64,000 nt of DNA from Candidatus Pacearchaeota archaeon (GTDB taxonomy: Archaea; Nanobdellota; Nanobdellia; Pacearchaeales; UBA284), in assembly GCA_026016245.1 (NCBI GenBank), contig CP061211.1, positions 424,879-488,878 on the forward strand, read 5' to 3'. The notes below the pieces were generated by a model, which worked only from the letters and a program-made list of their open reading frames with translations, was not told the DNA's origin and ran no database searches. Positions 22,812-56,937 of this stretch are shown one piece after another (position 1 is the first letter of the stretch; every line of letters starts with the position of its first letter). Both the position numbers and the translations under genes were made by a program.

Positions 22812-22812
22812 A

Positions 22813-23643: not shown

Positions 23644-23648
23644 AGAAA

Positions 23649-24086: not shown

Positions 24087-24087
24087 G

Positions 24088-25901: not shown

Positions 25902-25956
25902 CATAAGATTTAAATAAAACAAAATAAAAATTAGAAGATAAGATAGATAAAATAAA

Positions 25957-26409: not shown

Positions 26410-26410
26410 G

Positions 26411-26833
26411 ATGGATAAAGAAAATAAAGAATTTGAGAAAAAGATAATTGAGTTTAATATTCTTGATGCTAGAATTAGGGAGTTAGAGCAAAATATAGTT
26501 CTTTTGGAAAAACAAATTACAGAGATACAGAATTGTCAACTATCTCTAGATGAACTTAAGAACACAAAGGAAGGAACTGAAACATTTTCATCCATTAGTC
26601 CAGGAATCCTCGTGAAATCTAAACTATTGGATAATTCAGAAGTTATGATGGATGTTGGAGCCAAAATTTTCTGTAAAAAAAGTGTTGATGGAGCTAAAGA
26701 AATAATACAGAAAAGATTAGATCAGGCTCTTGAAATTCATAAAAAACTATCTGAGGAGATAACTCTATTATTACAGGAAATAACTAAGTTAGAGAAGGAG
26801 ATAAGAGAAAAACAATTAAAATCTATTTCTTAA
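26411..26833 (+). CDS. pfdA: prefoldin alpha subunit
   Basis: Two coiled-coil arms flanking a central beta-hairpin region; 140 aa. Confidence 0.6.
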   Translation: MDKENKEFEKKIIEFNILDARIRELEQNIVLLEKQITEIQNCQLSLDELKNTKEGTETFSSISPGILVKSKLLDNSEVMMDVGAKIFCKKSVDGAKEIIQKRLDQALEIHKKLSEEITLLLQEITKLEKEIREKQLKSIS

Positions 26834-27659
26834 ACATAAAAGGATAAACTCTTCTAACCTCGCTGATAAAAGATTTTTTCATGAAAACTCCAAGCTCTGA
26901 AATTATTGCTGTAACAAGTGCTGGATCTATTTTTTCAAAAGCCATGTTAGAGATCTTAACACCTTTTGGAGGATTAGACCAAACTTCCTTAATACTTCTT
27001 TTTTCAATTTTTTCTTCTATTCCATAAATTGTTTCTGGATCAAATTTCCAAGAATCTGTTGCTACATAGAGAGGAACATCATACTTTTTCGCAATAATAG
27101 CAAAAAGTTCGCTTCCTATTTTATTATATATTTTTGTTGGTGTAATAGCATCAGTACCATAGAAGGATATGTCAGCTTTCTTGAGAGCTATCCTTGCAGC
27201 AGAATCCACAAACATTGTAACAGGAATTCTTGCTTTAGAAAGCTGTGATGCTGTAATGCGGCCTTGATACAATGGGCGAGTTTCAGTACAATAAACCTCA
27301 AACTTTTTTCCTTGTCTTTTTGCCTCCAAGAAAATGTTTATAACAGTGCTAGAATGGCAGTGTGTGTAAATTGTCATGCCATTTTTAATAAATCTAGAAC
27401 CATATTTTGATATTTTTTTCTGGCTTTCTTTGAAGTGTTCAAGAACAAATCCCACACCTTCTTTAATTGTTGGTTTAGCAAGAATAAATTTGATAGTATT
27501 TCTTAAAGTGGGTTCAGTTGGTCTTAAATTGATGAGCTTTCTTACAGCTTTCTTGTCATGTTTTATTAACAAGGCTTTTGCTGCTGCCATAGCAACATTT
27601 CTTGCTCCCTGTATTTTTACCTCTTTTATGTCTTTGCATATCTTATCAAAACGATTCAT
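26823..27659 (-). CDS. eIF-2B alpha/beta/delta family protein (aIF-2B / ribose-1,5-bisphosphate isomerase family)
   Basis: TIYTHCHSSTV...YCTETRPLYQGR...VDSAARI pattern. Confidence 0.7.
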   Translation of the reverse strand: MNRFDKICKDIKEVKIQGARNVAMAAAKALLIKHDKKAVRKLINLRPTEPTLRNTIKFILAKPTIKEGVGFVLEHFKESQKKISKYGSRFIKNGMTIYTHCHSSTVINIFLEAKRQGKKFEVYCTETRPLYQGRITASQLSKARIPVTMFVDSAARIALKKADISFYGTDAITPTKIYNKIGSELFAIIAKKYDVPLYVATDSWKFDPETIYGIEEKIEKRSIKEVWSNPPKGVKISNMAFEKIDPALVTAIISELGVFMKKSFISEVRRVYPFMFKK

Positions 27660-27764
27660 AAAAAAAACAAGGGAAAGGGATTAAAAAATCTTTTTATTTT
27701 AGATTTTTGGAAACCTTTTTAAAATTAAAAGAGCTGATAAAATTATAAAAGAGGTAAGAAAGGA

Positions 27765-28643
27765 ATGCTTGAGACATTAGTTAATCCTAAAAAAGCTGAA
27801 AGACGCCCATGGGAGATGTTCTTTATAGGGGCATTATATGCTACAGTTTCACTTTTTATCGCAGATTTCCTCTTCTTGAAAAATCCTGTATTTGAAAAAC
27901 ATATCAGCATTTTAATAGTTTTTTTCACTGTCATGTTCTCCATACCTTTTTTCTTTTACATTATTAAAATTGAAGAGGAGAAAGATACAAAAATCAAAAG
28001 CGAGAAGAAACTAATTAAGGAACATGGAAAAGCTATCAGTGCATTACTTTTCTTATTCTTAGGTTATGTTGTTGCTTTTGCTTTATTATTTGCTTTAATG
28101 CCCATGGAAACGACAAGTACTAATTTTAAAATCCAAGTAGAAACTTACTGTATGGTTAATGCAAGGTTTGGTTATGAGGAATGTGTTGAAGGGCATTTAA
28201 CAGGAGATGCCACAGAACTACGTATGAAAGTACCAAGTATAAAAAATGGCATGTCCCGAGTTTCAACCATCCTTTCTAATAATTTTTATGTTCTTTTGTT
28301 TAGCCTTTTATTTTCATTCTTATTCGGAGCTGGAGCAATATTCATTCTTGCTTGGAATGGAAGTGTTATTGCAGCAGCCATAGCTATATTTGCTCGTGAT
28401 AATCTAGCACAACTTCCTTTAGGATTTTTACGTTACCTTATTCATGGATTGCCAGAGATTGCTTCTTATTTTATTGTGGCTCTTGCAGGTGGTATCATAG
28501 GGACAGCAGTAATAAGACATGAATTTGGACATGAAAAGTTTTGGCATGTTCTACAAGATTCTTTAGATCTCATAATTATCGCTCTCCTTGTTCTAATAAT
28601 CTCAGCATTTATGGAAGTTTTTTTAACCCCAGCTTTGTTTTAA
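27765..28643 (+). CDS. SpoIIM-like (DUF95) membrane protein
   Basis: LAWNGSVIAAAIA...HGLPEIASYFIVALAGG pattern. Confidence 0.5.
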   Translation: MLETLVNPKKAERRPWEMFFIGALYATVSLFIADFLFLKNPVFEKHISILIVFFTVMFSIPFFFYIIKIEEEKDTKIKSEKKLIKEHGKAISALLFLFLGYVVAFALLFALMPMETTSTNFKIQVETYCMVNARFGYEECVEGHLTGDATELRMKVPSIKNGMSRVSTILSNNFYVLLFSLLFSFLFGAGAIFILAWNGSVIAAAIAIFARDNLAQLPLGFLRYLIHGLPEIASYFIVALAGGIIGTAVIRHEFGHEKFWHVLQDSLDLIIIALLVLIISAFMEVFLTPALF

Positions 28644-28653
28644 ATAATATAAA

Positions 28654-29898
28654 ATGAAAACACAAACACAGCTGACAAAACGAACTTTCCTTTTATGGAC
28701 AGGTTTAATCCTAGCTGCCATAGGAAGCTATCTTTTCTATTTCATTATGGCTAGGATGTTAAGTGTAGAAGACTATGGGCTTCTTTATTCACTCATCGCA
28801 CTTACCTATCTTTTTACAATACCTCATGAAACTATTAGGACAGTGATATCAAAATACACAACAGAGTTTTGGGTAAAAAAAGAAAAAGGGAAGATTAAAG
28901 AATTAATGATCAAAGCAATAAAAACCATCTCTCTAATTTCAATCATTACTTTTGTGATATTTTTGCTTTTGCTTCCCTTATGGACAAAAATTTTGCACAC
29001 AAATGTATGGTCCATATCCCTAATTGGATTATCTCTATTAATCACATTCATGCTTCCGATAATTTGGGGGGTTTTACAGGGGACTAATCGTTTTGGACAT
29101 CTTGGATTAAATAATTCTGCTGAGATGGTTGTCAAACTTGCTCTTGGTATAATTTTAGTGTCCATAATAGGCTTAGGAGTTAATGGAGCTATCATAGCGA
29201 TTCCATTGTCTATTGCTGCTGCATTTTTTATTGGTTTTATCCCAATTAGAGATATAATAAAGGCAAAAAAGAAACCATTTAAAGCTGAGAAGCACCTCTT
29301 TAGATATTCTATGTCTGCCTTGATCATCTTTACCTTTTTTGTGGCTCTTTATTCAATTGATATAATCCTAGCAAGATATTTTTTCAGTCCCCTCTATGCT
29401 GGCCTTTATAGTGCAGTTTCTGTTATTAGTAAGGTTCTCTTTTTTGGATCAACAGCTATAACAAGAGTGATGTTTTCTGAGATTATTGAAAAGCATGGAA
29501 AAAAGAAGACAGAGGATAGCAGGAAAAAAAGTAGAAAAGTTTTGTTTAGATCTCTAGGCTTCCTGGCAATCATGTGCGGAATTTTCTTATTTATTGCTTT
29601 CATCTTTCCAGAATTAATTATTAATGTAGTTGTCGGTAATAGATATATTGCTGCAACACCACTTCTAAAGTACATGATGCTAGCAATGGCATTTTTTTCC
29701 TTCTCGTCATTAATTGTATTTTATAATTTATCTATTGATTGGCATAAGAAAATTACAGCAAAAATCCTTGGAAGTGTCGCATTTTTAATGATGGCCTTCC
29801 TTATTTTGTTTCATGCAAATCTGGAACAATTTGTCAAAGTAATTTTAGCCATAAATATAGGGCTTTTCCTAGCTCTTTTAACAACGTTAAAACGTTAA
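28654..29898 (+). CDS. polysaccharide biosynthesis / oligosaccharide flippase (MOP superfamily, Wzx-like)
   Basis: 414-aa polytopic membrane protein adjacent to aglB. Confidence 0.5.
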   Translation: MKTQTQLTKRTFLLWTGLILAAIGSYLFYFIMARMLSVEDYGLLYSLIALTYLFTIPHETIRTVISKYTTEFWVKKEKGKIKELMIKAIKTISLISIITFVIFLLLLPLWTKILHTNVWSISLIGLSLLITFMLPIIWGVLQGTNRFGHLGLNNSAEMVVKLALGIILVSIIGLGVNGAIIAIPLSIAAAFFIGFIPIRDIIKAKKKPFKAEKHLFRYSMSALIIFTFFVALYSIDIILARYFFSPLYAGLYSAVSVISKVLFFGSTAITRVMFSEIIEKHGKKKTEDSRKKSRKVLFRSLGFLAIMCGIFLFIAFIFPELIINVVVGNRYIAATPLLKYMMLAMAFFSFSSLIVFYNLSIDWHKKITAKILGSVAFLMMAFLILFHANLEQFVKVILAINIGLFLALLTTLKR

Positions 29899-29945
29899 AA
29901 AAGCGTCAACAAAAAGTATAAAAGTCTGGTTAATATAATCTCAAA

Positions 29946-32735
29946 ATGGAAGGAGAGGTTAAGGAAGAAATTAAAGAGGAAATCAGAGAAGAAACTAAAG
30001 AAATCAAACAAGAACCACAAAAACAACCAGAACAGCCCAAAATAGAAGAGATTACAGAAACAAAACCAAAAAGAAAACTATTTGCTAATATAAAATTCAA
30101 ACCAGATAAAAAATTCTGGATAATTCTTGCTTTAATCATACTTTTAATTGCTATCATATATCTAGGGGTTTGGATTAGAACTCAAAATATCCCTCAACTA
30201 AAAGATGTAACAACAGGCCAATATACTTTAGGTCCAGACTTAGATCCTTTCCTCTTTCTGAGACATGCTAAAGAAATTTCTGAAAACAGATTAGAAAATC
30301 CTGATATGATGAGGGCAGCACCACTTGGAGTGCAAAATTATGCTAAAACAAGTTTGATGCCATGGGCGATAGTCTTTATTTATAAAATTTTGAATATTTT
30401 TTGGGAACCACCAACAGCAACTGTTGAATTTGCTGCAATTATTGCACCAGTCATTTTTTTTGCTTTAACATTAATTGTTTTTTTCTTTTTTATAAAAAAG
30501 CTATTCTCTTTTATAACAAATAAAAGAAATGCATTAACTATAGCTTTGATTGCAACTGTTTTTTATGCTGTAATTCCACCTATGTTGCATAGAACAACAG
30601 CAGGCATTCCTGAAATTGAAAGTCTTGGCATGCTATGGTTTTGGTGTGCATTTTTATTCTTTACTTGGGCATGGCAATCAAAAAAAATTAAAAAAATAAT
30701 GCCTCTTGCAATTCTTTCTGGTATTTTTACTGGCTTAATGATTTTCACATGGGGGGGCAATAAATACATTTTTATGACATTTGCCTTAGCGTCTTTTCTT
30801 GTTTTTTTCTTTAATAAGCAAAAAAAGAAAAATTTTCTTATTTTCACTTCATGGCTTATTCCAACCTTAATTTTTGCTTTTGCTGAAAATCCTACTTTTG
30901 AAGCTCTTACAGTAATATCTGATACTGGTTTTGCTTCAATAATATTTTCATTATTGCTTGTTGACATGATAGTTTTTAATACAAAATTAAAAAAAATAAG
31001 AGAAAAAATAAAATTACCAGAAAGTGTAATAACCATGATTATATTAATAGTTATTGGATTTATAGGTCTTTTAATAATTAATCCAAATTTAATTTCACAA
31101 ACTGCTTCTAAAGTTGTAGAAGGTTTGCTTTATCCTTTTGGCAGAGGCAGAGTGAGCTTAACAGTTGCAGAGAACAAAGCTCCTTATTTTGTTGAGGTTT
31201 TTGGAAGCTTTAGTTATCTTTTTTGGCTTTTTTTCTTTGGCACTTTACTCTTATTTTATGAAGCAACAAAACATTTTGATAATAAAAATAAAATTCTTCT
31301 AAACAGCTTTTTTATTATTTTTATGATAACTTTTATTTTTAGTAGAATTTCACCTCAAAGCTTGCTTAATGGAGAAAATTTCATATCAAAGTTTTTATAT
31401 TTTGGTGGCCTAATTATTTTTGCTTTTGTCTTGCTTTATATTTATATTAGTGCTTATGTCAGAAAAGAATATAAGATATCAGAAAATTTCAAAAACATCA
31501 ATTTTTCTTATATTCTGGCTCTTGCATTTATATTCTGGATGATTGTATCAATGAGGGGAGCAATAAGACTTTTTTTTATAATAAGTCCGGCCTTGATTAT
31601 TGCATCAGCCTTTTTACCAATTAAGCTAGCTGAATATAGTTTTAAAACAAAAGATAAATTATACAAGATACTTTTGTGGTGTGGTGTTATTTTAGTAGTT
31701 GTATGCTTGATTATAACTTTTATAAATTATACAAAAAGTACAGCTCAAAGTGCAAAATATACTATTCCTGGACCTTATTATCAACAATGGCAAAAGGCAA
31801 TGGAATGGGTTAGAGAAGAAACTCCAAAAAATTCAATTTTTGCTCACTGGTGGGATTATGGTTATTGGGTGCAAACTTTAGGAGAAAGACCCACTGTTTT
31901 AGATGGAGGTCATGCATATCATGGAGGCTTCTGGAATTATTTAATGGGAAGACATGTTTTATGTGGACAAAATGAAAATGAAGCTCTAGAATTTTTATAT
32001 GCACATAATGCTTCATATCTTTTAATTGATTCAACTGAAATAGGTAAATACAGTGCTTATGGCGGTATTGGTTCTGACGAAAGTGGTTATGATAGATTAA
32101 GTTGGATAAATGCTTTTGTCCTTGATCCTACACAAACACAGGAAACAGGAAATGAAACAGCTTATGTTTATGTTGGTGGAACTATGTTTGACCAAGATGT
32201 TGAATGGGAGGGGCAGATTTTCCCAAGAGGAAAGGCAATAATAGTTGGCTTCTTACTAGTCATAGACAAAGAAACTGGAGAGATAAATGAAATTAAAAAC
32301 ATAGTTTATTATAATGAAAAACAATACAGAATTCCAATAAAATATGTCTACATTAATGGGGAATTAAAAGAGCTGGAAAAGAAAGATGAAAAATTAATGA
32401 ATGGGGCTCTTTATCTCATTCCAAGTGTTGGTCAGCAAATTAATAGTATGGGGGCAGCCTTATATTTAAGTGAAAAAGCATTAAATGCACAATGGGTCAA
32501 GCTTTACTTATTTGATGAAAGTGAAAATTTTGAGCTTGTTCATAGCCAAGATAATTTATTTGTTGAACAACTAAAACAGAATAATATCACTATAAGTGAT
32601 ATCATATATGCTGGTGGCATTCTCGGACCAATAAAAATATGGAAAATAAATTATCCTGAAAACTTTACCATTCCAGACAAAAAATTAAAAAGGTATTTAC
32701 AGCCAAAAAGCGATTTGCCTTTTGATTTATGGTAA
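29946..32735 (+). CDS. aglB: oligosaccharyltransferase AglB (STT3 family)
   Basis: WWDYGYW motif (FAHWWDYGYWVQTLGERPTVLDGG) preceded by a large multi-TM domain. Confidence 0.85.
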   Translation: MEGEVKEEIKEEIREETKEIKQEPQKQPEQPKIEEITETKPKRKLFANIKFKPDKKFWIILALIILLIAIIYLGVWIRTQNIPQLKDVTTGQYTLGPDLDPFLFLRHAKEISENRLENPDMMRAAPLGVQNYAKTSLMPWAIVFIYKILNIFWEPPTATVEFAAIIAPVIFFALTLIVFFFFIKKLFSFITNKRNALTIALIATVFYAVIPPMLHRTTAGIPEIESLGMLWFWCAFLFFTWAWQSKKIKKIMPLAILSGIFTGLMIFTWGGNKYIFMTFALASFLVFFFNKQKKKNFLIFTSWLIPTLIFAFAENPTFEALTVISDTGFASIIFSLLLVDMIVFNTKLKKIREKIKLPESVITMIILIVIGFIGLLIINPNLISQTASKVVEGLLYPFGRGRVSLTVAENKAPYFVEVFGSFSYLFWLFFFGTLLLFYEATKHFDNKNKILLNSFFIIFMITFIFSRISPQSLLNGENFISKFLYFGGLIIFAFVLLYIYISAYVRKEYKISENFKNINFSYILALAFIFWMIVSMRGAIRLFFIISPALIIASAFLPIKLAEYSFKTKDKLYKILLWCGVILVVVCLIITFINYTKSTAQSAKYTIPGPYYQQWQKAMEWVREETPKNSIFAHWWDYGYWVQTLGERPTVLDGGHAYHGGFWNYLMGRHVLCGQNENEALEFLYAHNASYLLIDSTEIGKYSAYGGIGSDESGYDRLSWINAFVLDPTQTQETGNETAYVYVGGTMFDQDVEWEGQIFPRGKAIIVGFLLVIDKETGEINEIKNIVYYNEKQYRIPIKYVYINGELKELEKKDEKLMNGALYLIPSVGQQINSMGAALYLSEKALNAQWVKLYLFDESENFELVHSQDNLFVEQLKQNNITISDIIYAGGILGPIKIWKINYPENFTIPDKKLKRYLQPKSDLPFDLW

Positions 32736-32754
32736 AAATATATAAAAATATAAA

Positions 32755-33756
32755 ATGATTAGCCAAGTTTTAATTACTGTTTTGTATCTTATTTTTGCAT
32801 TTGTAGTTACATTGCTATTAATAAAATGGTGGATTTCTATAGCTAAAAAAAATAAATTGCAAGGAAAGGATATGAATAAGTACAAAAAACCACTTGTTGC
32901 AGAAGCAGGAGGAATAGCTGTTGTTCTTGCTATTGTTTTTACATTATTCTTATATATATTTTTCAAAACTTTTGTATTAAAGACAGAAACACACTTTGTT
33001 GAAGTTTTTGCATTAATTGTCACTCTCCTTTTAGCTTGTTTTATTGGTTTTATAGATGATATTCTTGGATGGAAAAAAGGTATAAGGGGGTGGAAAAGAA
33101 TTTTAATGACAATTCCAATTGCAATTCCATTAATGGTTATAAATGCAGGCCATAGCACAATGTCTGTTCCTTTTTTAGGTTCTGTTGATTTTGGCCTTGT
33201 CTATCCACTTGTAATTGTTCTTGTTGGGATTATTGGGGCAACAAATGGTTTTAACTTGCTGGCTGGCTATAATGGACTTGAGGCTGGTCTAGGAATAGTA
33301 ATTTTTGCTACTCTAGGAGCAATTGCTTTTTTTGGAGGAAATGTCTGGCTAGCTTTGATAGCTGGGATAATTATTTTCTCTTTACTAGGTTTTCTAATAT
33401 TTAATCAATATCCAGCAAAAATATTTCCAGGTGATTCTTTAACATATAGTATAGGAGCTCTAATAGCTGTTTTTGCAATACTTGGAAATATGGAAAAAGC
33501 AGCTTTCTTGCTTTTTATCCCATTCATTATTGAAGGCATATTAAAAGCAAGGTCAAAATTTAAAGCTGAAAATTTTGGAAAGCCGAATAAAGATGGCAGT
33601 CTGGAGGTGCCTTATAAAAAAACCTATAGCTTGACGCATGCTTCAATTTTGTTTTTGAAAAAAGTAAAAAAGAAAGCTTATGAAAAAGATGTTGTAAGGC
33701 TACTTTTGATAATTGAATTAATTATAGCAGTTCTGATTATGGCAAGCTATGTATAA
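32755..33756 (+). CDS. UDP-sugar:dolichyl-phosphate sugar-1-phosphate transferase (GT4/MraY-like, AglH-like)
   Basis: Polytopic membrane protein with IGFIDDILGW motif. Confidence 0.75.
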   Translation: MISQVLITVLYLIFAFVVTLLLIKWWISIAKKNKLQGKDMNKYKKPLVAEAGGIAVVLAIVFTLFLYIFFKTFVLKTETHFVEVFALIVTLLLACFIGFIDDILGWKKGIRGWKRILMTIPIAIPLMVINAGHSTMSVPFLGSVDFGLVYPLVIVLVGIIGATNGFNLLAGYNGLEAGLGIVIFATLGAIAFFGGNVWLALIAGIIIFSLLGFLIFNQYPAKIFPGDSLTYSIGALIAVFAILGNMEKAAFLLFIPFIIEGILKARSKFKAENFGKPNKDGSLEVPYKKTYSLTHASILFLKKVKKKAYEKDVVRLLLIIELIIAVLIMASYV

Positions 33757-33909
33757 ATTCATGAAATTTCTAGCTTATTTCTTATTATAATAGCAAGAAT
33801 TACTAATTGAGATTATTCTTACATCATTATGCTTATCTAATTTTGATTTAATAAAAGATTACGAATTTAAAAAGATTAGTTTTATAAATTTATAAAGCAG
33901 CAGTTTAAT

Positions 33910-34905
33910 ATGAAAATTTGGATTGATATAACCAACACACCCCATGTTCTGTTCTTCAAGCCAATTATAGAAATGCTGAGAAAAGAAAGGCATGAAGTAA
34001 TAATAACCGCGAGAAAACATGCACAAACTCTCGGCATGTTAGATTTCTTTCATCTTCCTTATGTCACAATAGGAAAACATGCTGGCAAGTCTTTGATAAA
34101 AAAGGCATTTAACACTATTCCCAGAGTTTCTTTATTAAAAAAGTTTATAAGAAAAGAAAAGCCGGATTTGGGAATATGCCACCAGTCTCCTTATCTTGTC
34201 CAGGCATGCTTTTTATTGGGTATAAAAAGTATTTATATTTTTGACAATGAAACAGCAGCTTTGCAGAATTTGCTTTCCATACCTTTTGCTTCTAAAGTGT
34301 TATGTCTAGGAGCAATAAAGAAAAAAAGGCTTTTTGGAAAAAAGCTTATTAAATATCCTGGAGTAAAAGAAGCTGTTTACTTAACTAGCTGGAAATTTAA
34401 CAAAAACATATTTAGGAAGTTGGGTCTAAACAAAAACAAAAAGATAATTGTTTTGAGACCAGAGCCTTATACTGCGGCCTATTATAAGAAAAATAAAGAT
34501 ATATTATTGAAATTAGTAAAAAGCATGCCAAAAGAATGGCAGGTTGTGTTAATAGCAAGAAGTGAAAAACAAAAAAAAGAATACAAAAAAATAAATCCGA
34601 ACTTGATAATACCCAAAAAAGCAATTGATGGCCCTTCCTTAATTTACTATGCAGACCTCGTTATAGGTGCGGGCGGCACAATGAACAGAGAAGCTGCTGT
34701 TTTAGGCACACCAGTAATAAGTACTTACCAGGAAAAATCGCTTGCAGTTGATGAATGGCTTATAAAAAAGGGTTTAATGATTCATTCTCTAGATCCTTCT
34801 CTTAGCTTGATAAAAAAAGTTATGGGAAGGAAAAAGAAGAGCATGCTAAAAGAAGGCAAGCAAGCTCTAGATCTTATAATTGGAGAGATAGAAAAAACTA
34901 GATGA
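33910..34905 (+). CDS. DUF354 family protein (predicted GT-B fold)
   Basis: MKIWIDITNTPHVLFFKPII N-terminus typical of DUF354. Confidence 0.5.
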   Translation: MKIWIDITNTPHVLFFKPIIEMLRKERHEVIITARKHAQTLGMLDFFHLPYVTIGKHAGKSLIKKAFNTIPRVSLLKKFIRKEKPDLGICHQSPYLVQACFLLGIKSIYIFDNETAALQNLLSIPFASKVLCLGAIKKKRLFGKKLIKYPGVKEAVYLTSWKFNKNIFRKLGLNKNKKIIVLRPEPYTAAYYKKNKDILLKLVKSMPKEWQVVLIARSEKQKKEYKKINPNLIIPKKAIDGPSLIYYADLVIGAGGTMNREAAVLGTPVISTYQEKSLAVDEWLIKKGLMIHSLDPSLSLIKKVMGRKKKSMLKEGKQALDLIIGEIEKTR

Positions 34906-34943
34906 ACCCCCTCGCCCTAGAGGCATGTATCATATCATAAAAA

Positions 34944-35912
34944 ATGTACAAAAAGAAAAAAATTTTATTTGTTTATAGAGATTTTTTCTCTTTTGTAAAA
35001 AGAGATTTTGAAATATTAGATAGCCAATACAATGTAACCTCTCTTCATGCTACAAAAAACTTGCCTCTGTTAATTTTCAAGCTTCTGGCTTTAGTTCCAA
35101 AAAATGATCTTATTTTTGTATGGTTTGCTGATTGGCATGCATTTCTTGCAACTTTATCTGCCAAACTTTTCAGAAAAAAAATAGTTGTTATAGTGGGGGG
35201 TTATGATGCTGCTTGTGTGCCTGAAATTAACTATGGTGCTTTCTGTTCCTGGTGGAAAAGCAAGGTAGTAAAATGGACTCTCAAGAATGTTACTATAGCT
35301 TTAGCTGTTTCAAAACATGTAGAAGAAAATATGTTAAAGTATTCTAAACCAAAAGGGGCAGAGGTCTTATATCATGGATTTGATTATGCAAAAATTAAAC
35401 TGAGACCTCAAAACAAAAAAGAAAATTTAGTAATATCAGTTGGAACTGCAAAGATTAAGAGGCCAGACATTTTTATTAAAGTGGCAAAATATCTTCCTAA
35501 AATTAAATTTCTTCTTGTAGGATCTATTACTAAAGAAATTGAACAATTGCAGAAAATAGCTCCTTTAAATGTAAAATTTACTGGTCTTTTATCTTTTGAT
35601 AAACTGCTTAAAAAATATCAAAAAGCTAAAGTATATGTTCAGACATCAGCCTATGAAGGCTTTGGATGCGCGCTAGCAGAAGCTATGCTTTGTGAATGTG
35701 TTCCGGTTGTAACAAAAAAAGCTGCCTTGCCAGAAGTTATTGGAAATACTGGTTTTTGTGTTCCTTATGGAAATGCGGAAGCAACTGCAGAAGCAATTAA
35801 AAAAGCTTTAATATCGAATAAAGGAAAAGTGGCTAGGGAAAGAATTAAGAAATTTTTTCCTATTTCAAGAAGAAAGAAAAAATTAATTGAAGTTATAGAA
35901 AAACTAAAATGA
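34944..35912 (+). CDS. glycosyltransferase family 4 (GT-B)
   Basis: VYVQTSAYEGFGCALAEAMLCECVPVVT E-x7-E motif. Confidence 0.75.
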   Translation: MYKKKKILFVYRDFFSFVKRDFEILDSQYNVTSLHATKNLPLLIFKLLALVPKNDLIFVWFADWHAFLATLSAKLFRKKIVVIVGGYDAACVPEINYGAFCSWWKSKVVKWTLKNVTIALAVSKHVEENMLKYSKPKGAEVLYHGFDYAKIKLRPQNKKENLVISVGTAKIKRPDIFIKVAKYLPKIKFLLVGSITKEIEQLQKIAPLNVKFTGLLSFDKLLKKYQKAKVYVQTSAYEGFGCALAEAMLCECVPVVTKKAALPEVIGNTGFCVPYGNAEATAEAIKKALISNKGKVARERIKKFFPISRRKKKLIEVIEKLK

Positions 35913-36589
35913 AAAATAAATTGAAAACAGTTATTAAAAAAACACCTTTAATCAATAATGTGGCAAGAATCTTATTAAATTATATAAAAACTATTTCATT
36001 CCCTGGATCTAAAGAATATTGGGAAGAAAGATATGCTAGTGGAGGAACTTCGGGTGCTGGTTCTTATGGAAAACTTGCAAAATTTAAAGCCGACGTCATA
36101 AATTCGTTTGTAAAAAATAATAAGATTAATTCAGTTATAGAGTTTGGTTGTGGAGATGGCAATCAATTATCTTTATTTGATTTTCCTGCTTATATTGGTT
36201 TGGATATTTCAAAAACTTCAATAGAATTATGTATGAAACATTTTAAGAAGGATAGAACGAAAAGTTTCTTTTTGTATGATTCTGAGTATTTCAAAGACAA
36301 CCACCATATCTTCAAAGCAGAGCTCGCTTTATCCTTAGATGTCATTTATCATCTTGTTGAAGAGAATATATTTGAGCTTTATATGAAACATTTATTTTCA
36401 ACTTCTGATAAATTTGTTATTATTTACTCTTCTGATACTAGTAATAAGCAAAAAGTTCACCAAAGGAATAGACAATTTACGAAATGGGTAAAAATTAATT
36501 TTGCCAAATGGAAATTAATAAAAAAAATCAAAAATAAATATCCTAATGAATCAGGTGCTGATTTCTTTATTTACAAGAAGGCAAAGTAA
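35909..36589 (+). CDS. class I SAM-dependent methyltransferase
   Basis: VIEFGCGDGNQ motif I. Confidence 0.65.
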   Translation: MKNKLKTVIKKTPLINNVARILLNYIKTISFPGSKEYWEERYASGGTSGAGSYGKLAKFKADVINSFVKNNKINSVIEFGCGDGNQLSLFDFPAYIGLDISKTSIELCMKHFKKDRTKSFFLYDSEYFKDNHHIFKAELALSLDVIYHLVEENIFELYMKHLFSTSDKFVIIYSSDTSNKQKVHQRNRQFTKWVKINFAKWKLIKKIKNKYPNESGADFFIYKKAK

Positions 36590-36690
36590 AGAAAGGATTT
36601 GGATTTGAAGCAAAAACCAGTTTAAACAAAGGATTATAAAATTATTTCCCTTAGAAGAAAGAAAAAAATTATTGGAATTATTGAAAAAAT

Positions 36691-37584
36691 TTGAAAATGA
36701 AACGAGTTTTTATTATAATAGTTAACTGGAATGGTAAAGATTTGCTAAAAAGATGTTTGAATTCCTTAAGAAAGAATACAGGATATCCTTCGTATAAAGT
36801 TATTATTGTTGATAATGGATCAACAGACGGAAGTCAGGAAATAATTAGAAAGAAATTTCCTTGGGCAGATTTAATCTCTTTAGAAAAAAACTAGGGGTTT
36901 GTTAAAGGAACTAATATTGGAATCAAACGTGCTTTAACAAAATATAATGCTGATTATGTTTTTCTTTTGAATAATGATACTGAAATTATTCAAAAAAACT
37001 GGTTAAGAGATATGGTCAAAATTTTAGATTCTTACCCTAAAGGTGGTATTGCTTGTTGTAAACTGCTTTCTCTAGATAAAAAACAACAAATAAGTGCTGC
37101 ACATTCCATACCAATTGGGAGATCTCCAGAAATTTTAGCAAAAGATGTTGTTGAAATTGATTGGGCCATAGGAACTGCATTTCTAATTAAAAGAAATGTT
37201 ATTAAAAAAATTGGTTTATTTGATGAAAATTTTTCGCCAGCTTATGGAGAAGAATCAGATTACTGCTGGAGAGCAAGAAAATCAGGTTATAAAATTTTAT
37301 ACAATCCTTTCGTATCTATAATACATTATGGGGCAGCAACTGCAAAAAAATTTGATCCAAATTATATTTATTTTATTAAACAAAGAAATCGAATAAGGAA
37401 TATACTGCTAAACTACCCAACATCTTGGTTAATAATAAGACTCTTAGCTGAAATTAAAGTTATATTAAGAGCGCTCTTTGCCATGAAAATTTATTTACTT
37501 ATAAAAGCTTATTGGGCCAACATAAGAAATCTAAAAGAAATTCTGGAAAAAAGAAAAAAAAGAACTGCAAAAATCTTGTATTAA
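36691..37584 (+). CDS. glycosyltransferase family 2, interrupted by an in-frame TAG at 36892-36894
   Basis: IIIVNWNGKDLL...VDNGSTDGS then EKN*GFVKGTNIGI...LLNNDTEII, all in one frame; the stop sits where ENxGF normally has a sense codon. Confidence 0.7.
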
Positions 37585-38210
37585 ATTTTATATTTCGATG
37601 CCTTAATGATAAATTGATAACCAAACAATGGGGGATTAGTTTTGGTAATAATCTTTCCTGCTTTTCCAAAGAATCTTGATAGATTTGTTGTCATATCTAT
37701 TTTTTCGATTACAAAACCCGCTTTTTCAATTAAACTTTTGGCTGTTTTAAAAGTAAAAAATCTTAGATGTGTTTTATCTAAAAGCCCCATTTCTTTGTAT
37801 TCCCACCTACCAAATAAAAGTTTAAGGCGTATTACCCAATTAGCTACATTTGGAATAGAACAGACAATGTAACCAGCATTTTTAAGATATTTTTTAAGTT
37901 TAATAATAACATCCAACGGCTGTCTTAAATGCTCCAAAATGTCACCAAAAATGATAATATCAAAATATTTTTTTGGAAAGGGTAGTTTGGTTAGAATTTC
38001 AATGTCCCCAACAATTACTTTTTTACAGTATTTTCTAGCTAATTTGGCAGCTTGCCTATCTTTTTCTATTCCAACAACTTCACAGTCATTTTGTGTTAGT
38101 CTCTTGTCTATTTGACCAGTAGCACATCCAACATCTAAAACTTTTTTATTCTTACCAACTAATTGAATCATCTTCCTATGGGATAAAGTAAATTGGCTAT
38201 ATTTTCTCAT
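37581..38210 (-). CDS. class I SAM-dependent methyltransferase
   Basis: VLDVGCATGQ motif I, DIIIFGDILEHL. Confidence 0.75.
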   Translation of the reverse strand: MRKYSQFTLSHRKMIQLVGKNKKVLDVGCATGQIDKRLTQNDCEVVGIEKDRQAAKLARKYCKKVIVGDIEILTKLPFPKKYFDIIIFGDILEHLRQPLDVIIKLKKYLKNAGYIVCSIPNVANWVIRLKLLFGRWEYKEMGLLDKTHLRFFTFKTAKSLIEKAGFVIEKIDMTTNLSRFFGKAGKIITKTNPPLFGYQFIIKASKYKI

Positions 38211-38396
38211 TTTAAACTCCTTAATCTTTTAATTAATAAACTTTGGCTTTTAGTTTTAGTACTTGTATCTTCTTTTTTATTTCAATCTGTCAGTCGATTC
38301 TTCTATATTTTTAATAGGTCTGTATCCTTTTTAACAAAATTTTATCCAAGATACTCTTATTATTATAAACAACAATTATTGATATCATCTTTTATA

Positions 38397-39767
38397 TTAT
38401 CTTACAATTAAGGGTTTACCCGACAATATTTTCACTAAGGCTATTAACAAACGTTTTGGAATTTTTAAAGGATTTTTTAAAGTATTCTTTATTACTATTT
38501 TTAGTTTCTCGTTTCTGAAAAGTAAAAATAGCTTATATATTTCATCTCTTGTTAACTTTTCTGATAAAATTATTGCATCATTATGACTTTCGCCAAAATT
38601 CACATTTAAAGAATTCCAATTCATATCTTCACTTACTAAATTCCTTGCTTTTGCATATTCCCAAACAGGTGTTCCAGGAAATGGCGTCAAAACATATATA
38701 GCAAAGCTAGCTAATCGATTTTCTTTGATAAATTTAAGAGTCCGCAGGATATCTTCTTGGCTTTCTTTTGGCGAACCGATAATAAAACTAGCACCAATCT
38801 TTATTCCATACTTTTTAAATATATTAATAGCATTTATGTGATCCTTTATGGTTATATTTCTTCCTTTGAGATATTCTAAAGTAGTAGGCGAACCCGACTC
38901 TAGCCCCATACTAACAGACTTCACGTTCATTTGCTTTAATAACCAACTTACTTCATTATTAACTAAATTTGATCTAACACTGCAAGTAAAATTCACTTTA
39001 CCTAAAATGCCCTCCTTCTTCAGTAGTTCCAATATCTGTTTTAATCTTCTTTTATCGGCTATAAATATGTCATCCCAAAAGGCTATATTTTTTACTTTAT
39101 ATTTACTAATAAGGTATTTTATTTCGTTAACAACATATTCGGCTGAAAAAAATCTAACATTATCCCAAAAGCGAGATGAGGCACAAAAAGTACACCTATA
39201 GGGACATCCTCTTGAAGTAAACATAGAGGTAGACTTTTTAATTGTAAATAGATCTCTCGCTGGCATTGGTATCCTATCTAGAGGTTCTATTGGCTTTCTT
39301 TTTTTCGTTATAATAAGTTCACCATTTCTTCTAAAAACAATTCCGTCAATCTTCTCCAGTTCATCCCCATCAAAACACCCCTTCTCTTCAAAAAGATTGA
39401 AAAGTTCGATGATTGTTTCTTCGCCTTCACCGATAACGCCCACATCCATATCCCTACTTAATGTGGATGGCAATGCAGAAATATGTACGCCACCAATAAT
39501 AACAGGTATGTCATGTTTTTTGGCAATTTTAGCATACTCAATTGCTTTGTTATAGTTCTGGGTTACTGATGTAATACCAATAATATCTGGCTTAAAATTA
39601 TTTATCTCCTGTTTAATATCTCTATCCACAATTTTGAATTTAATGTGATTGAAGCCAAACTCTTTCCTTAGCGAACTTGCTAGGTAGCCCAAACCTAATG
39701 GTGGAATAAAAGCTTCAATCTTTTTCGTTATATCCATTGCATTTATAAACATAATTTTGGGTTTCAT
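38397..39767 (-). CDS. B12-binding domain radical SAM protein
   Basis: TSRGCPYRCTFCAS (CxxxCxxC) with N-terminal B12-binding-like region. Confidence 0.8.
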   Translation of the reverse strand: MKPKIMFINAMDITKKIEAFIPPLGLGYLASSLRKEFGFNHIKFKIVDRDIKQEINNFKPDIIGITSVTQNYNKAIEYAKIAKKHDIPVIIGGVHISALPSTLSRDMDVGVIGEGEETIIELFNLFEEKGCFDGDELEKIDGIVFRRNGELIITKKRKPIEPLDRIPMPARDLFTIKKSTSMFTSRGCPYRCTFCASSRFWDNVRFFSAEYVVNEIKYLISKYKVKNIAFWDDIFIADKRRLKQILELLKKEGILGKVNFTCSVRSNLVNNEVSWLLKQMNVKSVSMGLESGSPTTLEYLKGRNITIKDHINAINIFKKYGIKIGASFIIGSPKESQEDILRTLKFIKENRLASFAIYVLTPFPGTPVWEYAKARNLVSEDMNWNSLNVNFGESHNDAIILSEKLTRDEIYKLFLLFRNEKLKIVIKNTLKNPLKIPKRLLIALVKILSGKPLIVR

Positions 39768-39934
39768 TTTATTGACATTCTCCTAATTTTTAAAGAAAAT
39801 CTTAGATCTGTGAAACCTTCTTGTCCAGCAATGGAACTTATTCTAACTTTAGGTTCTATCATATTAAATATTTCGGGAACTATTTTAACAAAAGCTCTTA
39901 CATTTTCTTTCATTTTTCTTTATTGTTTAATTTT

Positions 39935-41449
39935 TTATTTGGGTTTAAGATACTGAACCAATTTAAAATCTTCTTTTGTTATTCCTTTAATCAACCACAT
40001 AACAACAAAATAGATTATAACTGCAAGCAAAATCTCAGTTATACCAAGCAGCAAATTAAGCCTGACAAAGTAATTATAAACTATCAAAAAGCCAAGCATG
40101 ATAAGGCTTGCAGCTAAAGGCTTCCATAAAGATGTTGCCCTTGGCACTATCCTTAATTTTCTTTTTGATGAAATCGCCAGAGCACCAAAATAAAAATATC
40201 TGCTAATAAAAGTGGCAAGAGCAGCTCCTATTAAACCATAAGCAGGCCCTATTGTGATAAAATAACGAATAAAGAAGTAATTTAAAACAATATTAAGCAC
40301 TGTTGCAATAACAATAATTTTTGCAGGAAATTGGGGCTTTTCTTTTGAATAAAATAAAGTGCTAAAGTATCTGCCAGTTGCTATTTCAATAATTAAAAAA
40401 GCAAGTAGAGCAGAAGCAATATAAATAGGTATTCTATATTCAGCTGGAACATAAGCAGCTCCATAAACAACTTTTAGAATCCATGGAGCAAGAGCTGCAA
40501 AACCAAAAGCGCATGGAAATGAAAAAATAGCTGAATAATGAAATGCTTTTTTAAATGCTCGCTCAAGTCTCTGGCCTTTAATTTGAGTAAAGACTGGAAG
40601 TAAAACATCAGCCATAAATATAAGCCCTGCTACAGCGCCAACAATAGCAAAAATAGCTGTATAGAAACCAACAAATTCAGAAGGAAGAAATGCTCCTAAC
40701 ATCAATCTATCTATATAAATAAAAAAAACCCCTGTTATGCTACCAATCGAAAGATAGCCAAAAAACTTGAGAAGTCTTTTTTTATCAATTTTAATCAAAG
40801 GCCCTTTCAAAAGAAAATAATAGCTTTTGCTTATAATAAAAAAACAGAGTAAGAAAGCAACAAACGCTGCTATGCTCAAAGCAATAAAAACAGAAGGAAC
40901 ACTTTTTATTGTGACAAGAAATGCTATAACAAGACCTATTCTAGTTATCTGAAAAATTATTTCTTTTACAGCTACAAGTTTTACTTTTTGGATTGCATAA
41001 AATAGTGAAGAAAAGAAACCAAGCAATGCAGTAGCAAAAAGATATACTGAGCCTATTTGTAAAGGCAAGATTAGAGCTTCTTTATGAAAAGCATATAATG
41101 AAAGAGGTCTTGCAATCAAAAATAGTGCGAGGGCAAAAGCTCCAGCAATCAATAGTTTAAAATTCAGCAAAAATCTTGTATAAGATCTAGCTTTAGTTTT
41201 TTGCTTTTTGCCAAGAGCCTCTGAAGTGTATCTTATTAAAGTGGAATTAATACCAAGGTCCGCAAAGGTTATTAAAATGAGAATTACAGCAAGAGCCAAG
41301 GAATAAATACCAAAAAGTTCTGGAAAGAGCATTCTTGCTACAATAATTGTGAAGATGAATCCACCTAACTTTGCAATGGCAGTTGCAGTAATTTGATAAA
41401 GAGAATTACGCAAGACTTTTTGTGTAAGGCTTGGCTTTTTTGGTTTCAT
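39935..41449 (-). CDS. polysaccharide biosynthesis / flippase family membrane protein (MOP superfamily)
   Basis: 504-aa polytopic membrane protein. Confidence 0.5.
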   Translation of the reverse strand: MKPKKPSLTQKVLRNSLYQITATAIAKLGGFIFTIIVARMLFPELFGIYSLALAVILILITFADLGINSTLIRYTSEALGKKQKTKARSYTRFLLNFKLLIAGAFALALFLIARPLSLYAFHKEALILPLQIGSVYLFATALLGFFSSLFYAIQKVKLVAVKEIIFQITRIGLVIAFLVTIKSVPSVFIALSIAAFVAFLLCFFIISKSYYFLLKGPLIKIDKKRLLKFFGYLSIGSITGVFFIYIDRLMLGAFLPSEFVGFYTAIFAIVGAVAGLIFMADVLLPVFTQIKGQRLERAFKKAFHYSAIFSFPCAFGFAALAPWILKVVYGAAYVPAEYRIPIYIASALLAFLIIEIATGRYFSTLFYSKEKPQFPAKIIVIATVLNIVLNYFFIRYFITIGPAYGLIGAALATFISRYFYFGALAISSKRKLRIVPRATSLWKPLAASLIMLGFLIVYNYFVRLNLLLGITEILLAVIIYFVVMWLIKGITKEDFKLVQYLKPK

Positions 41450-41862
41450 TTTTTAGTTATATACCAAATTAAAGAAGGGGCTTTTATATATTTTTTATGT
41501 TTCTGGAATAGACCACAGATTATATCTATAACATCATGAAATAGACAGCCAAAGAAAATTGGCCAGAAAAAGTTAAGAAATAAAGATAAGATTAAGAGCA
41601 GAAGGAAAAATTCAATTGTATGGAAAATAAATAATAAAGTCTTGGGTTTTTTGATTCTTGCTCTATTTAATTCATATCTAAAATATTTATATGTTTTTCC
41701 TAAATTAAAATTTTTCTTTTTTATTATATAGAAAAAATAATGATCTATGTCAATTAAAATTGAAGCTAAAAAGAAAAGAAGGATAAATAAAAAGTCAAAA
41801 TTAAGAAGATATAAAATTATTGTTAAAATTATAGAAAAGATTATATGATATTTAGGAAGCAT
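41446..41862 (-). CDS. small membrane protein (possible membrane-bound hydrolase-like)
   Basis: 138-aa hydrophobic ORF with DIDHY / HDVID motifs. Confidence 0.3.
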   Translation of the reverse strand: MLPKYHIIFSIILTIILYLLNFDFLFILLFFLASILIDIDHYFFYIIKKKNFNLGKTYKYFRYELNRARIKKPKTLLFIFHTIEFFLLLLILSLFLNFFWPIFFGCLFHDVIDIICGLFQKHKKYIKAPSLIWYITKK

Positions 41863-41882
41863 TTTTATTTATTAATTTATTT

Positions 41883-43475
41883 TTATTCTTTAGTTATTTT
41901 TCTAAGAATATCTGCAAAAGCTGGGCGAGTTATGAAAACACCAACTGTTATTCCAAGTAATGTAGTTACAACAAAACCTCGCAATAGGCCTGCTCCTGCT
42001 GACCATAATGGCAAGAGTGCTAGAGCTGTTGTTGCATAAGCAGCGAAAATCATGAAGAATGCTCTTTTGATTCGCTCCTTGATACTGAACTGTTTTGATA
42101 CTCTTGTCTCATCTATCATAATAATCTGATCATCAACCCCTGTTCCTAAAGCAGCTATAATTCCTGCTATAGATGCTAAATCAAGATTCCATTTGATTAC
42201 TGCTGCTATTGCCAATACAAGAAGAGCTTCTGAGATTAAGGTTATTATAACAGGGAGGACAAGTATAAATTTTCTATATCTCAAATAAATAATTAGACAA
42301 ACAGCTAAAAAAACCGCTATAGCAACAATAAAAACATTTTTTGTAAACTCTCTGCCTAATAGAGGAGAGACAGAATCTAATTTTACTATCTCTAATTTGA
42401 ATGGTAAAGATCCTGTGATTAAAACTGTCTGTAGTTTCTTCATATTATCTTGAGCTGCTTCATAAGCTTGAGCTCTTGTTTCTCCTACACCGCTTCCTGT
42501 TATTGCAATCCTTGTAGTTTCCTGTCCTTTTAAGCCTGCATCTATTAGTAAAGTATCAACAAGATTGTCATCCAAGTAAAGATCAAGAGTCTCATTCAGA
42601 TAACGTTCTCCATCAGATACATTTTCTTCTAATCCTGCTGTGAGTTCAGCATGTTTTTTTGCAGCTTGCTCTGAAAGATGAATTTCAAAATGGAACCTAC
42701 ATGCCTGGCCGCCTTCTATTTCTCCGCATTGTTCTATGTAAGCACAAGAAGCATCATTTCTACAAACAAAAGTAATATCATTCTGGCCGCCTACAAAAAC
42801 TGTCTTATTACCTATCCTAGCCTCAAACTTTCCTTGTTTTCCTATTAAATCTTGCAATTCTTGTGGTGTGGCTCCTGCCAGTTCGACCATCATAAATCTT
42901 TCTCCAGCTAGATCAGAGACTTCCTTTACATTAATATCAGTTAAACCATAAACATTCAAACGATAGCGGACAGTTTCAAGAAGACTGGCCATTTCTTGGG
43001 CATTAAGAGACCTTTCAGGCTTAACTAAAGCACGAGCGCCTCCTTGCAAGTCAAGTCCCATCTTTAATCTTGTTATGGATATCTCAGAGACTGTGATGCC
43101 AGTATCAGAAGTTGTAAGGAAAACATATTCTTGCTTGTCTGTTAGTATAGTTATTTTCTCTTTTTGCTCCTCTTCATTCCCATTTTTAGTTTTATTAGTA
43201 GTTTCATTAGTCTTATTCTGATTAGGAGGCTTAGGTTCAGGAGCTGCAGGGAGATATGCTACAGCTTCACAATAATCTTCTATGCTATTTATCTGCTTGC
43301 CATTTATTTCTTTAATGATTTCCCCAATTGCTATGCCTGCTTCTGCTGCAGTTGAATTTGCTTGAATCCCTTTGATAATAACTTTTCCAGAAAAGTATTG
43401 CCAATTTATTATGAAGAGAATTGCTACTATGAATAAAATAATTAGCAACCAGATTCTCCAACCTATTTTTACCAT
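41883..43475 (-). CDS. secD: protein-export membrane protein SecD with PDZ-like insert
   Basis: C-terminal 6-TM SecD/SecF domain; N-terminal GKVIIKGIQANSTAAEAGIAIGEIIKEINGKQINSIEDY PDZ-like segment. Confidence 0.75.
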   Translation of the reverse strand: MVKIGWRIWLLIILFIVAILFIINWQYFSGKVIIKGIQANSTAAEAGIAIGEIIKEINGKQINSIEDYCEAVAYLPAAPEPKPPNQNKTNETTNKTKNGNEEEQKEKITILTDKQEYVFLTTSDTGITVSEISITRLKMGLDLQGGARALVKPERSLNAQEMASLLETVRYRLNVYGLTDINVKEVSDLAGERFMMVELAGATPQELQDLIGKQGKFEARIGNKTVFVGGQNDITFVCRNDASCAYIEQCGEIEGGQACRFHFEIHLSEQAAKKHAELTAGLEENVSDGERYLNETLDLYLDDNLVDTLLIDAGLKGQETTRIAITGSGVGETRAQAYEAAQDNMKKLQTVLITGSLPFKLEIVKLDSVSPLLGREFTKNVFIVAIAVFLAVCLIIYLRYRKFILVLPVIITLISEALLVLAIAAVIKWNLDLASIAGIIAALGTGVDDQIIMIDETRVSKQFSIKERIKRAFFMIFAAYATTALALLPLWSAGAGLLRGFVVTTLLGITVGVFITRPAFADILRKITKE

Positions 43476-43485
43476 TTTAGCTTTC

Positions 43486-44496
43486 TTAACTTATATTTTT
43501 CTTTTTGCACCACCATTTAAGTATCGAAGCATTTCCAAGCCATGTTGAGATCAGGTCAATAAAAAGCCCTGCTGACAAGATGAAGAAAATTTGTTTAAGT
43601 ACAGAGGATTGGGCTACAAAAAATCCTATAAGAACAGCAATTAAAGAGGTTATTGTCATTGTCAAGCCTGTACGAGCTGCTGATTTTATTCTATTGTTTA
43701 GCTCTCCCTCTCCTCTTCTCTTGATAAGTTTTGTTGTTAACATTACATCTGTATCAACACTATAACCAACAAGCATTAAGAAAGCTGCTATGCCTGCTGT
43801 TGATATATGAAATCCAAATAAATTAGCTATGGTTAAAGCTCCTACAATATCCATGACTGCAGCAAGTATTACAGCTAATGAAGGAACAATTTTTCTAAAA
43901 ATAATGAAAACAACTAGGCCCATGATTACAAATGCTATAGCCAAAGCAATAATCATCTGTTTGTAGAAACTCTCACTTAAACTAGCTCCACTTATCTCTA
44001 GACTTGAATTTGAACTATCTAATTGATAACCTAGAAATTCTTCAAGAGAGCTGGTTGCAGTTTCAGAATCAGATTTTGTCTCAACTACAATACCTATCTG
44101 CTTTCTTGTTGTTATATCCTCTAATTTCCTTACATTAATATCTTCTAGCTTGCTTGCCAAAGTATTTTCCATATTCTGGAGATCAATCTCTTCTTCAGTA
44201 TAGATTGTAATGACTGTTCCTCCTGTCAAAGTCACATCTTTAAACATAATATCACCATGTTGGGCATAAAAAAAGCCAACATAAGCAAAACAAGCAATAA
44301 GAATGATAATAGATATTAGAAGAAGTTTTTTATAATTCTTGTCATACCATTCAGAACCACTAAGCTTTGGTTTTTTAGGTTTTTCTTCTTTCTCTATTTT
44401 CTTTTCTAGCTCTTGTTTTGGTTTTTCTTCCTTTTTCTCTTCTTTTATCTCTGGTTTCCCTTCCCTTCTCTCCTCTGGTTTTTCTTCCTCGTTCAT
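43486..44496 (-). CDS. secF: protein-export membrane protein SecF
   Basis: C-terminal 6-TM SecD/SecF domain, directly upstream of secD. Confidence 0.75.
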   Translation of the reverse strand: MNEEEKPEERREGKPEIKEEKKEEKPKQELEKKIEKEEKPKKPKLSGSEWYDKNYKKLLLISIIILIACFAYVGFFYAQHGDIMFKDVTLTGGTVITIYTEEEIDLQNMENTLASKLEDINVRKLEDITTRKQIGIVVETKSDSETATSSLEEFLGYQLDSSNSSLEISGASLSESFYKQMIIALAIAFVIMGLVVFIIFRKIVPSLAVILAAVMDIVGALTIANLFGFHISTAGIAAFLMLVGYSVDTDVMLTTKLIKRRGEGELNNRIKSAARTGLTMTITSLIAVLIGFFVAQSSVLKQIFFILSAGLFIDLISTWLGNASILKWWCKKKNIS

Positions 44497-44570: not shown

Positions 44571-44687
44571 GCGCCAGTAGTCTAATGGTAGGACATTAGC
44601 CTTCCAAATAAGGGCAAGCCCTTATCAACCCAAATGCTTACCTAATAAAGAAAGCTAATGATCTGGGTTCGAGTCCCGGCTGGCGCA
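44571..44687 (+). tRNA. intron-containing tRNA, most likely tRNA-Gly (anticodon UCC); ~45-nt intron at 37/38
   Basis: Acceptor GCGCCAG/CUGGCGC; anticodon stem UUAGC (44596-44600) pairs with GCUAA (44654-44658); loop CUUCCA+A; intron ~44608-44652 with internal hairpin. Confidence 0.7.
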
Positions 44688-56181: not shown

Positions 56182-56217
56182 GAAAAGAATTTTAAATTCC
56201 TTTTTCTTTGTTTTATT

Positions 56218-56883: not shown

Positions 56884-56937
56884 AAATTATTTCTTGACTG
56901 CTAAAAAATATTTAAACCTTTCCCAATAATTAATAAT

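Follow-up and report, generated by a model that had tools for sequence, protein, structure and literature searches.

The AglB locus and its interrupted glycosyltransferase gene

By exact sequence matches, the proteins of the window analysed here, i.e. of the whole stretch of 64,000 nucleotides, are those of an NCBI MAG of ‘Candidatus Pacearchaeota archaeon’ (locus tags IB618_), on a contig of 710,724 bp. The window contains a gene cluster that is headed by an AglB/STT3 oligosaccharyltransferase of 929 aa (29946..32735, + strand). This protein matches the Pfam STT3 profile (PF02516) with 36.3 bits at a cut-off of 24.5 as well as STT3-PglB_core, and it reaches 111 bits (E = 6e-32) with NCBIfam archaeo_STT3, which is under the curated 450-bit cut-off of that model. 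On the same strand follow a GT4 of the GlcNAc-1-P-transferase type (32755-33756), a DUF354 gene (33910-34905), a GT1 (34944-35912), and a methyltransferase (35909-36589), which directly precedes the family 2 glycosyltransferase (GT2) gene that is the subject of this study, ca. 4 kb downstream of AglB. Downstream of the GT2 gene, a convergent methyltransferase (37581-38210), a B12-binding radical SAM protein (38397-39767) and a Polysacc_synt/MurJ-type flippase (39935-41449) are encoded on the - strand, and the cluster includes two flippase-type genes of the Polysacc_synt family. With an STT3 gene that adjoins genes for glycosyltransferases, flippases and sugar-modifying enzymes, the locus has the composition of an AglB (STT3) N-glycosylation cluster.

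The GT2 gene comprises ca. 295-297 codons, depending on the start. Translation of 36691-37584 in a single frame gives 297 codons with one internal stop, the TAG at 36892-36894, and a terminal TAA at 37582-37584; the sequence around the internal stop is GAA AAA AAC TAG GGG TTT GTT AAA GGA ACT AAT. The N-terminal fragment (36691..36891, + strand) starts either with TTG at 36691 or, as called by NCBI and Logan, with ATG at 36697, which lies in the AAAATG-type start context typical of this genome, and in the latter case consists of 65 aa (UZE93661.1). The amber codon (36892..36894, + strand) is followed in the same frame by the rest of the gene (36895..37584, + strand), with 229 codons plus TAA, which encode the DxD-type motif LLNNDTE, the acceptor-side motif EESD and the C-terminal helices, and which contain no second stop and no frameshift. 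The list of open reading frames accordingly shows one entry of 67 aa at 36691-36894 and another of 205 aa, counted from the first TTG, at 36967-37584. GenBank likewise lists two separate CDSs, UZE93661.1, which is called a ‘glycosyltransferase’ in its own right, and UZE94347.1 (222 aa, 36916-37584, starting MGIKRAL with a non-canonical ATT), neither of them flagged as a pseudogene, whereas the Logan call for the C-terminal piece is shorter (37012-37584, 190 aa).

Both pieces were compared with Pfam as one product. The read-through product of 297 aa, with X at the position of the TAG, matches Glycos_transf_2 (PF00535) with 81.4 bits (cut-off 23.3, E = 9e-23), and residues 8-175 cover positions 2-168 of the 168 profile positions, i.e. 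the full length. As this match is unbroken over the whole profile, the stop must sit within a single domain. When the product was aligned with 119 homologues by MAFFT, the TAG fell into a column between an Asn and a Gly, each of which is present in 117 of the 119 sequences. The column itself holds a sense residue in all 119 homologues and is variable, with 13 different amino acids (57 Leu, 16 Tyr, 8 Arg, 7 Val, 7 Ile, 6 Met, and others). An earlier note on this DNA had described a single in-frame TAG at the variable residue of an ENxGF motif, which interrupts an otherwise intact GT2 in the AglB locus and separates two ORFs that share a frame and together give a family 2 glycosyltransferase of ca. 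297 aa; translation, the one-stretch Pfam match across the stop, and the variable column with its conserved flanks bear out this description in all parts.

Among proteins of the PDB, sequence matches were obtained with a Leptospira glycosyltransferase (6p61), CgT/GalT1 (5hea) and TarP (6h1j), while the best NCBIfam matches (rhamnosyltransferase, MftF) remained far under their cut-offs. The gene resembles these GT2 enzymes of the GT-A type and GlfT2 (4fiy) in its match to the full PF00535 profile, in the GT-A fold that is predicted for its closest homologue (see below), and in the conserved DxD-type and E-x-D motifs. Unlike them, it cannot be translated into a full protein with the standard code, as the TAG intervenes. 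The frame does not yield one uninterrupted polypeptide, and the gene is therefore classed as a disrupted GT2 and not as a functional member of the family.

Some further observations concern other parts of the window. A stretch of ca. 900 bp (58630-59537) within this densely coding DNA contains no ORF of at least 50 aa, and Rfam gave no hit in it at E <= 0.1; it could encode an RNA that has escaped recognition, represent a gene that has decayed, or be involved in regulation or replication. A Dph2-like ORF of diphthamide synthesis (6892-7542, - strand; 216 aa) covers positions 80-273 of the 302 positions of its Pfam profile. The N-terminal ca. 80 profile positions are missing, and there is no upstream room for them, as SepF starts at 7549, so that the gene is either short by nature or has been truncated. 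Ribosomal protein uL11 (8873-9541, - strand; 222 aa) has two Pfam domains that end at residue 134, which leaves a C-terminal extension of ca. 85 residues. At 55360-57492 (+ strand), genes for a Fic/DOC-family protein, a Cas4-like PD-(D/E)XK nuclease and a methylpurine-DNA glycosylase follow each other, and the surroundings of the Cas4-like gene showed neither a CRISPR array nor further cas genes.

An intact homologue and the origin of the codon

When about 5.8 billion clustered proteins were searched, a single close homologue was obtained, P0001, which is an intact protein of 300 aa with 76% amino acid identity. The next best matches have at most 49% identity, and all matches above 76% are fragments from this same genome, including the C-terminal fragment P0002 of 190 aa. 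An intact allele of the window gene was not found in this collection. P0001 is encoded on a Logan contig (DRR463595_20563, here termed L002; 27% GC) from run DRR463595, the same run that also yields Logan contigs of the window genome. L002 carries an AglB locus as well: it begins in the 3' end of an AglB gene whose product is 39% identical to the window AglB, the GT1 that immediately precedes its GT2 shares 58% identity with the window GT1, and it also encodes a pair of Alg14 and Glyco_tran_28_C proteins. We considered whether L002 could represent a paralogous locus of the same genome and rejected this, because P0001 is present only in the Logan data and not in the NCBI genome, and because L002 has its own AglB 3' end with merely 39% identity. 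L002, with its GC content of 27%, is hence assigned to another organism than the window genome.

About 400 bp 3' of the intact GT2 of L002, a 92-aa ORF (L002:4118-4396) resembles the window GT2 only over residues ca. 137-220 of the latter, with 36% identity and E = 5e-13, and seems to be what is left of a second, decayed GT2.

At the critical position, the window reads AAC TAG GGG, whereas L002 reads AAT TAT GGA (N-Y-G). The homologues that share the local context L-x-K-N-Y-G-F (P0001, P0014 and P0022) likewise carry Tyr, and a single TAT-to-TAG transversion would thus be the simplest history of the codon. A change of TTG, which encodes Leu as the commonest residue of the family at this position, to TAG would also be one step. 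The earlier note had proposed to look at orthologues for a split at the same point: the relatives turned out to be unsplit, which holds for P0001 with its TAT as well as for the 118 more distant homologues. The window gene therefore differs from intact homologues by a disabling lesion that a simple mutation can explain, as is expected for a pseudogene.

Genome and metagenome scans added no closer relatives. Reference genome contigs gave only two distant bacterial GT2s with 29-32% identity, which indicates that the window genome and its close kin are absent from that collection, and the best match among JGI metagenome contigs had 44% identity, without close relatives.

The stop lies inside a GT-A domain

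An AlphaFold model was made for P0001, using 50 homologues, and reached a pLDDT of 94.6 and a pTM of 0.91. In Foldseek searches, this model retrieved GT-A glycosyltransferases, with GlfT2, TarP and GalNAc-T2 as best matches and E-values down to 1e-15. The GT-A fold with a DxD-type motif after beta4 was thus recognized, and this statement refers to the 76%-identical P0001 and not to the window protein itself. Tyr69 of P0001, which corresponds to the TAG, lies in the modelled structure in the loop between beta3 (residues 61-64) and alpha3 (residues 71-85). All 50 sequences of the alignment share the aspartate of the DxD motif, D97, and in the window gene, where the motif reads LLNNDTE, it is encoded downstream of the stop. 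Mapped from this model, the N-terminal fragment covers beta1-alpha1-beta2-alpha2-beta3 with the nucleotide-binding motif DNGSTD, and a product ending at the TAG would keep only these elements and would lack D97, the EESD motif and everything C-terminal of them.

Could the two pieces still make an enzyme together? It is conceivable that the 65-aa N-terminal peptide and a separately started C-terminal protein associate, as Alg13 and Alg14 do in case of a GT-B enzyme. Naturally split glycosyltransferases do exist, L002 itself has a pair of genes for Alg14 and Glyco_tran_28_C, GenBank annotates two CDSs, and in-frame starts are available downstream of the TAG, namely ATT 36916, TTG 36967 and ATG 37012. 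However, none of these three candidate restarts has the (T)AAAATG start context, the annotated start is the non-canonical ATT, and any of the restarts would drop 7-39 residues after the TAG, including conserved residues of the G-F-x-x-x-N motif. Moreover, the break after beta3 lies within a single Rossmann-like GT-A domain and not at a domain boundary, and all relatives are single polypeptides. The missing start context, the loss of conserved residues and the position of the break inside the domain render a functional two-piece enzyme exceedingly unlikely. An independent translation of the C-terminal piece was rejected as well, as no candidate start has the start context of this genome.

As to translation starts in general, the genes of the window (e.g. 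at 18143, 24088, 32755 and 41862) mostly start in a (T)AAAATG context, with few clear Shine-Dalgarno-like purine motifs, and many starts abut or overlap the preceding stop.

Is the TAG a real base?

Over 21714-32235 and 32234-43951, respectively, the window is matched with 100% identity by two Logan contigs of run DRR463595, and this includes the TAG, which is carried by contig DRR463595_62740. As there is not a single difference over 22 kb, it is probable that one set of reads underlies both the NCBI and the Logan assembly, which are then independent only with respect to the assembler. The finding of the same TAG by two assemblers thus counts against an assembler artefact, and it does not count against a systematic read error.

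All or most cells of the organism might therefore carry a sense codon, with the TAG being an artefact of the consensus or base call, or a polymorphism within the population. In such a case it would be no surprise that the two assemblies agree, if they go back to the same reads, and that the GT2 gene is otherwise flawless. The sequence context would also be compatible with an error, as the changed base opens a G run (CTA-G-GGG) right after an A7 run, a context that is prone to phasing-type substitution errors. Nevertheless, a substitution error must dominate the pile-up to reach the consensus, two different assemblers arrived at the same base, and no intact version of the protein exists in the collection searched. 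Moreover, the other genes of the densely coding 64 kb do not look damaged, and the assembly is hence not error-prone in general. We thus see a small chance for this explanation, and we consider it unlikely.

The two Logan contigs break at window position 32234-32235, inside the 3' part of aglB, where they overlap by 2 bases. This break may be due to k-mers that are shared with a related organism in the sample, as L002 starts in the 3' end of aglB, or it may be due to strain variation.

TAG is an ordinary stop codon, and decoding is improbable

Among the ca. 80-86 likely genes of the window, TAA is used 57-61 times, TGA 15-17 times, and TAG 8 times as stop codon. The genes that end in TAG encode SecY, an IF-2B family protein, a VIT1 protein, Rpr2/Rpp21, an S30AE-like protein, a putative ATPase (with sub-threshold matches to AAA/STAND NTPases only), an ASCH protein and Rpp29, and for several of these proteins the Pfam profile is matched to its very end close to the C-terminus. 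For Rpp29 (PF01868), the TAG at 17844-17846 had already been recognized in the earlier note as a genuine terminator that speaks against global recoding, and both points hold true, with eight genes of the window ending in TAG and only the GT2 gene having an internal one. In the window, TAG is neither rare as terminator nor frequent in conserved genes, as would be the case in a genome-wide reassignment, and a global TAG reassignment is excluded for the window.

Backup stops point in the same direction. After the eight ordinary TAGs, the next in-frame stop is found within 0-28 codons (median 6), compared to a median of 8 for TAA and of 4 for TGA, whereas the next in-frame stop after the TAG of the GT2 gene follows only after 230 codons. 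If TAG is read as sense throughout the 64 kb, a single pair of real-gene ORFs is merged, namely the two GT2 pieces. The in-frame continuation past this TAG is more than chance.

This leaves a local decoding of the one UAG, by which a full-length enzyme could be made with pyrrolysine (Pyl), with a natural amber-suppressor tRNA or by context-dependent read-through, the TAG then being tolerated or even regulatory. The site would be suited for this, as the family accepts almost any residue at this position, and the preserved downstream frame with its Ka/Ks of 0.2 would be a natural consequence. RNA folding also gave a slight signal, as the 120 nt 3' of the TAG fold with -19.5 kcal/mol somewhat better than shuffled sequences (z = -2.0; 7 of 200 shuffles fold as well). 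However, the hairpins are short, AU-rich and weak, and when the fold window is centred on the TAG, the z-score is only -0.9, and we do not count the folding as evidence for read-through or for a PYLIS-like element. Rfam, applied to the window at gathering thresholds, detected only tRNAs and the 5S rRNA and nothing near the TAG. Likewise, none of the 6 tRNAs that ARAGORN and Rfam identified in the 64-kb window has a CUA anticodon, and no pyl-like gene is found among the annotated genes of the window. One of these tRNAs, at 44571-44687 (+ strand), was missed by ARAGORN and scores 59 bits with Rfam; it contains a 48-nt intron and was considered as a candidate suppressor, which was rejected because its anticodon, read by eye, is UCC (Gly) and not CUA.

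To our knowledge, the known Pyl genes encode methylamine methyltransferases. With these genes, i.e. archaeal mtmB, mtbB and mttB, the GT2 gene shares the in-frame UAG and the intact frame beyond it. In contrast to them, its UAG is not conserved at the same position in the homologues, none of which is interrupted and the closest of which has a Tyr codon, TAT; the GT2 family has no link to Pyl; and the window contains no tRNA-CUA, while TAG is a common ordinary stop without an excess of backup stops. Pyl decoding needs five pyl genes, which are unlikely to be maintained in a genome of 0.71 Mb, and pyl genes are not known from this lineage. Taken together, we regard a full-length enzyme made by UAG decoding as distinctly improbable. 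It is very unlikely, too, that UAG is decoded merely at some frequency, by a suppressor tRNA or by leaky termination, which would give low and possibly regulated amounts of full-length GT2. The titles and abstract openings of the literature matches listed contain no report of Pyl or amber suppression in DPANN archaea, and the passages on DPANN in PMC5424206 concern SepRS.

A probable recent nonsense mutation in a surface-glycan locus

We therefore prefer, with a probability of about three in four, the interpretation that a recent Tyr-to-amber nonsense mutation has inactivated one GT2 of the AglB cluster. A single transversion, most likely from the Tyr codon TAT to TAG, would have occurred at codon 66 (counted from ATG 36697). 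Normal aRF1-dependent termination at this codon would result in a peptide of 65-67 residues in which the GT-A fold is represented by its first three strands only, and as the DxD motif and the acceptor side would be missing, the enzyme would be lost. The lipid-linked glycan that is transferred by AglB would then presumably lack one sugar, or differ in one. We infer both the absence of the full-length protein and the consequence for the glycan.

When did the mutation occur? Nei-Gojobori Ka/Ks ratios relative to the gene on L002 are 0.18 for the 64 codons upstream of the TAG and 0.195-0.20 for the 230 codons downstream of it, at a dS of ca. 0.7. Both halves of the gene were subject to the same purifying selection during almost the whole divergence from L002. 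The ratio of ca. 0.19 must be understood as a reflection of the history before the lesion, which is present in one genome only. In the downstream part, ca. 6% of the possible point changes would create a stop, and since neither a second stop nor a frameshift has appeared there, neutral drift since the lesion is limited, to at most ca. 0.07 substitutions per site at P = 0.05 and ca. 0.02 at P = 0.5. Either the mutation is recent or the gene is still read through; the intact downstream frame and the Ka/Ks values fit both.

This ambiguity counts against a nonsense mutation, as the 229 intact downstream codons and the equal Ka/Ks on both sides are also expected under full read-through. So does the direction of the change, as T-to-G runs against the AT mutational bias that is expected for a genome of 31% GC. 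In favour of it are the TAT codon of the relative, the agreement of a second assembler and the ordinary use of TAG as a stop, and of the three options that the earlier note had left side by side, i.e. nonsense mutation, base-call error and read-through, the first is hence favoured and the other two are weakened. All explanations beyond those discussed here can jointly claim very little probability. The loss of a GT2 would also fit the gene loss in the reduced genomes of DPANN archaea and the turnover of genes for glycan synthesis, and the GT2 remnant of 92 aa on L002 indicates that decay of glycosyltransferase genes does occur in such loci.

A similar situation is known from bacteria, where nonsense-mutated glycosyltransferase pseudogenes differentiate O-antigen or capsule types. 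The parallels are the one disabling point mutation in an otherwise intact glycosyltransferase of a glycan cluster, the intact counterpart in a relative, and the expectation of a changed or shortened glycan. Unlike these cases, the gene described here is from a DPANN archaeon, and it belongs to an AglB cluster of the N-glycosylation type. As the lesion is a point substitution and does not lie in a slippage-prone repeat, nothing suggests a reversible phase variation.

For the annotation, a single GT2 gene that is interrupted by an internal stop would be a better description of the locus than two CDSs. In itself the finding is ordinary and goes little beyond this correction, and a wider interest would arise only with the unlikely read-through or suppressor interpretations: a leaky decoding of UAG, if true, would lead to sub-stoichiometric or heterogeneous surface glycans and would be a first hint of amber suppression in Pacearchaeota. 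In case of the favoured nonsense mutation, if it is real, the gene would be a small example of ongoing gene loss, here in the pathway for the surface glycans of an ultra-small archaeon that probably depends on a host, and the resulting glycan variation could affect the attachment to hosts or viruses.
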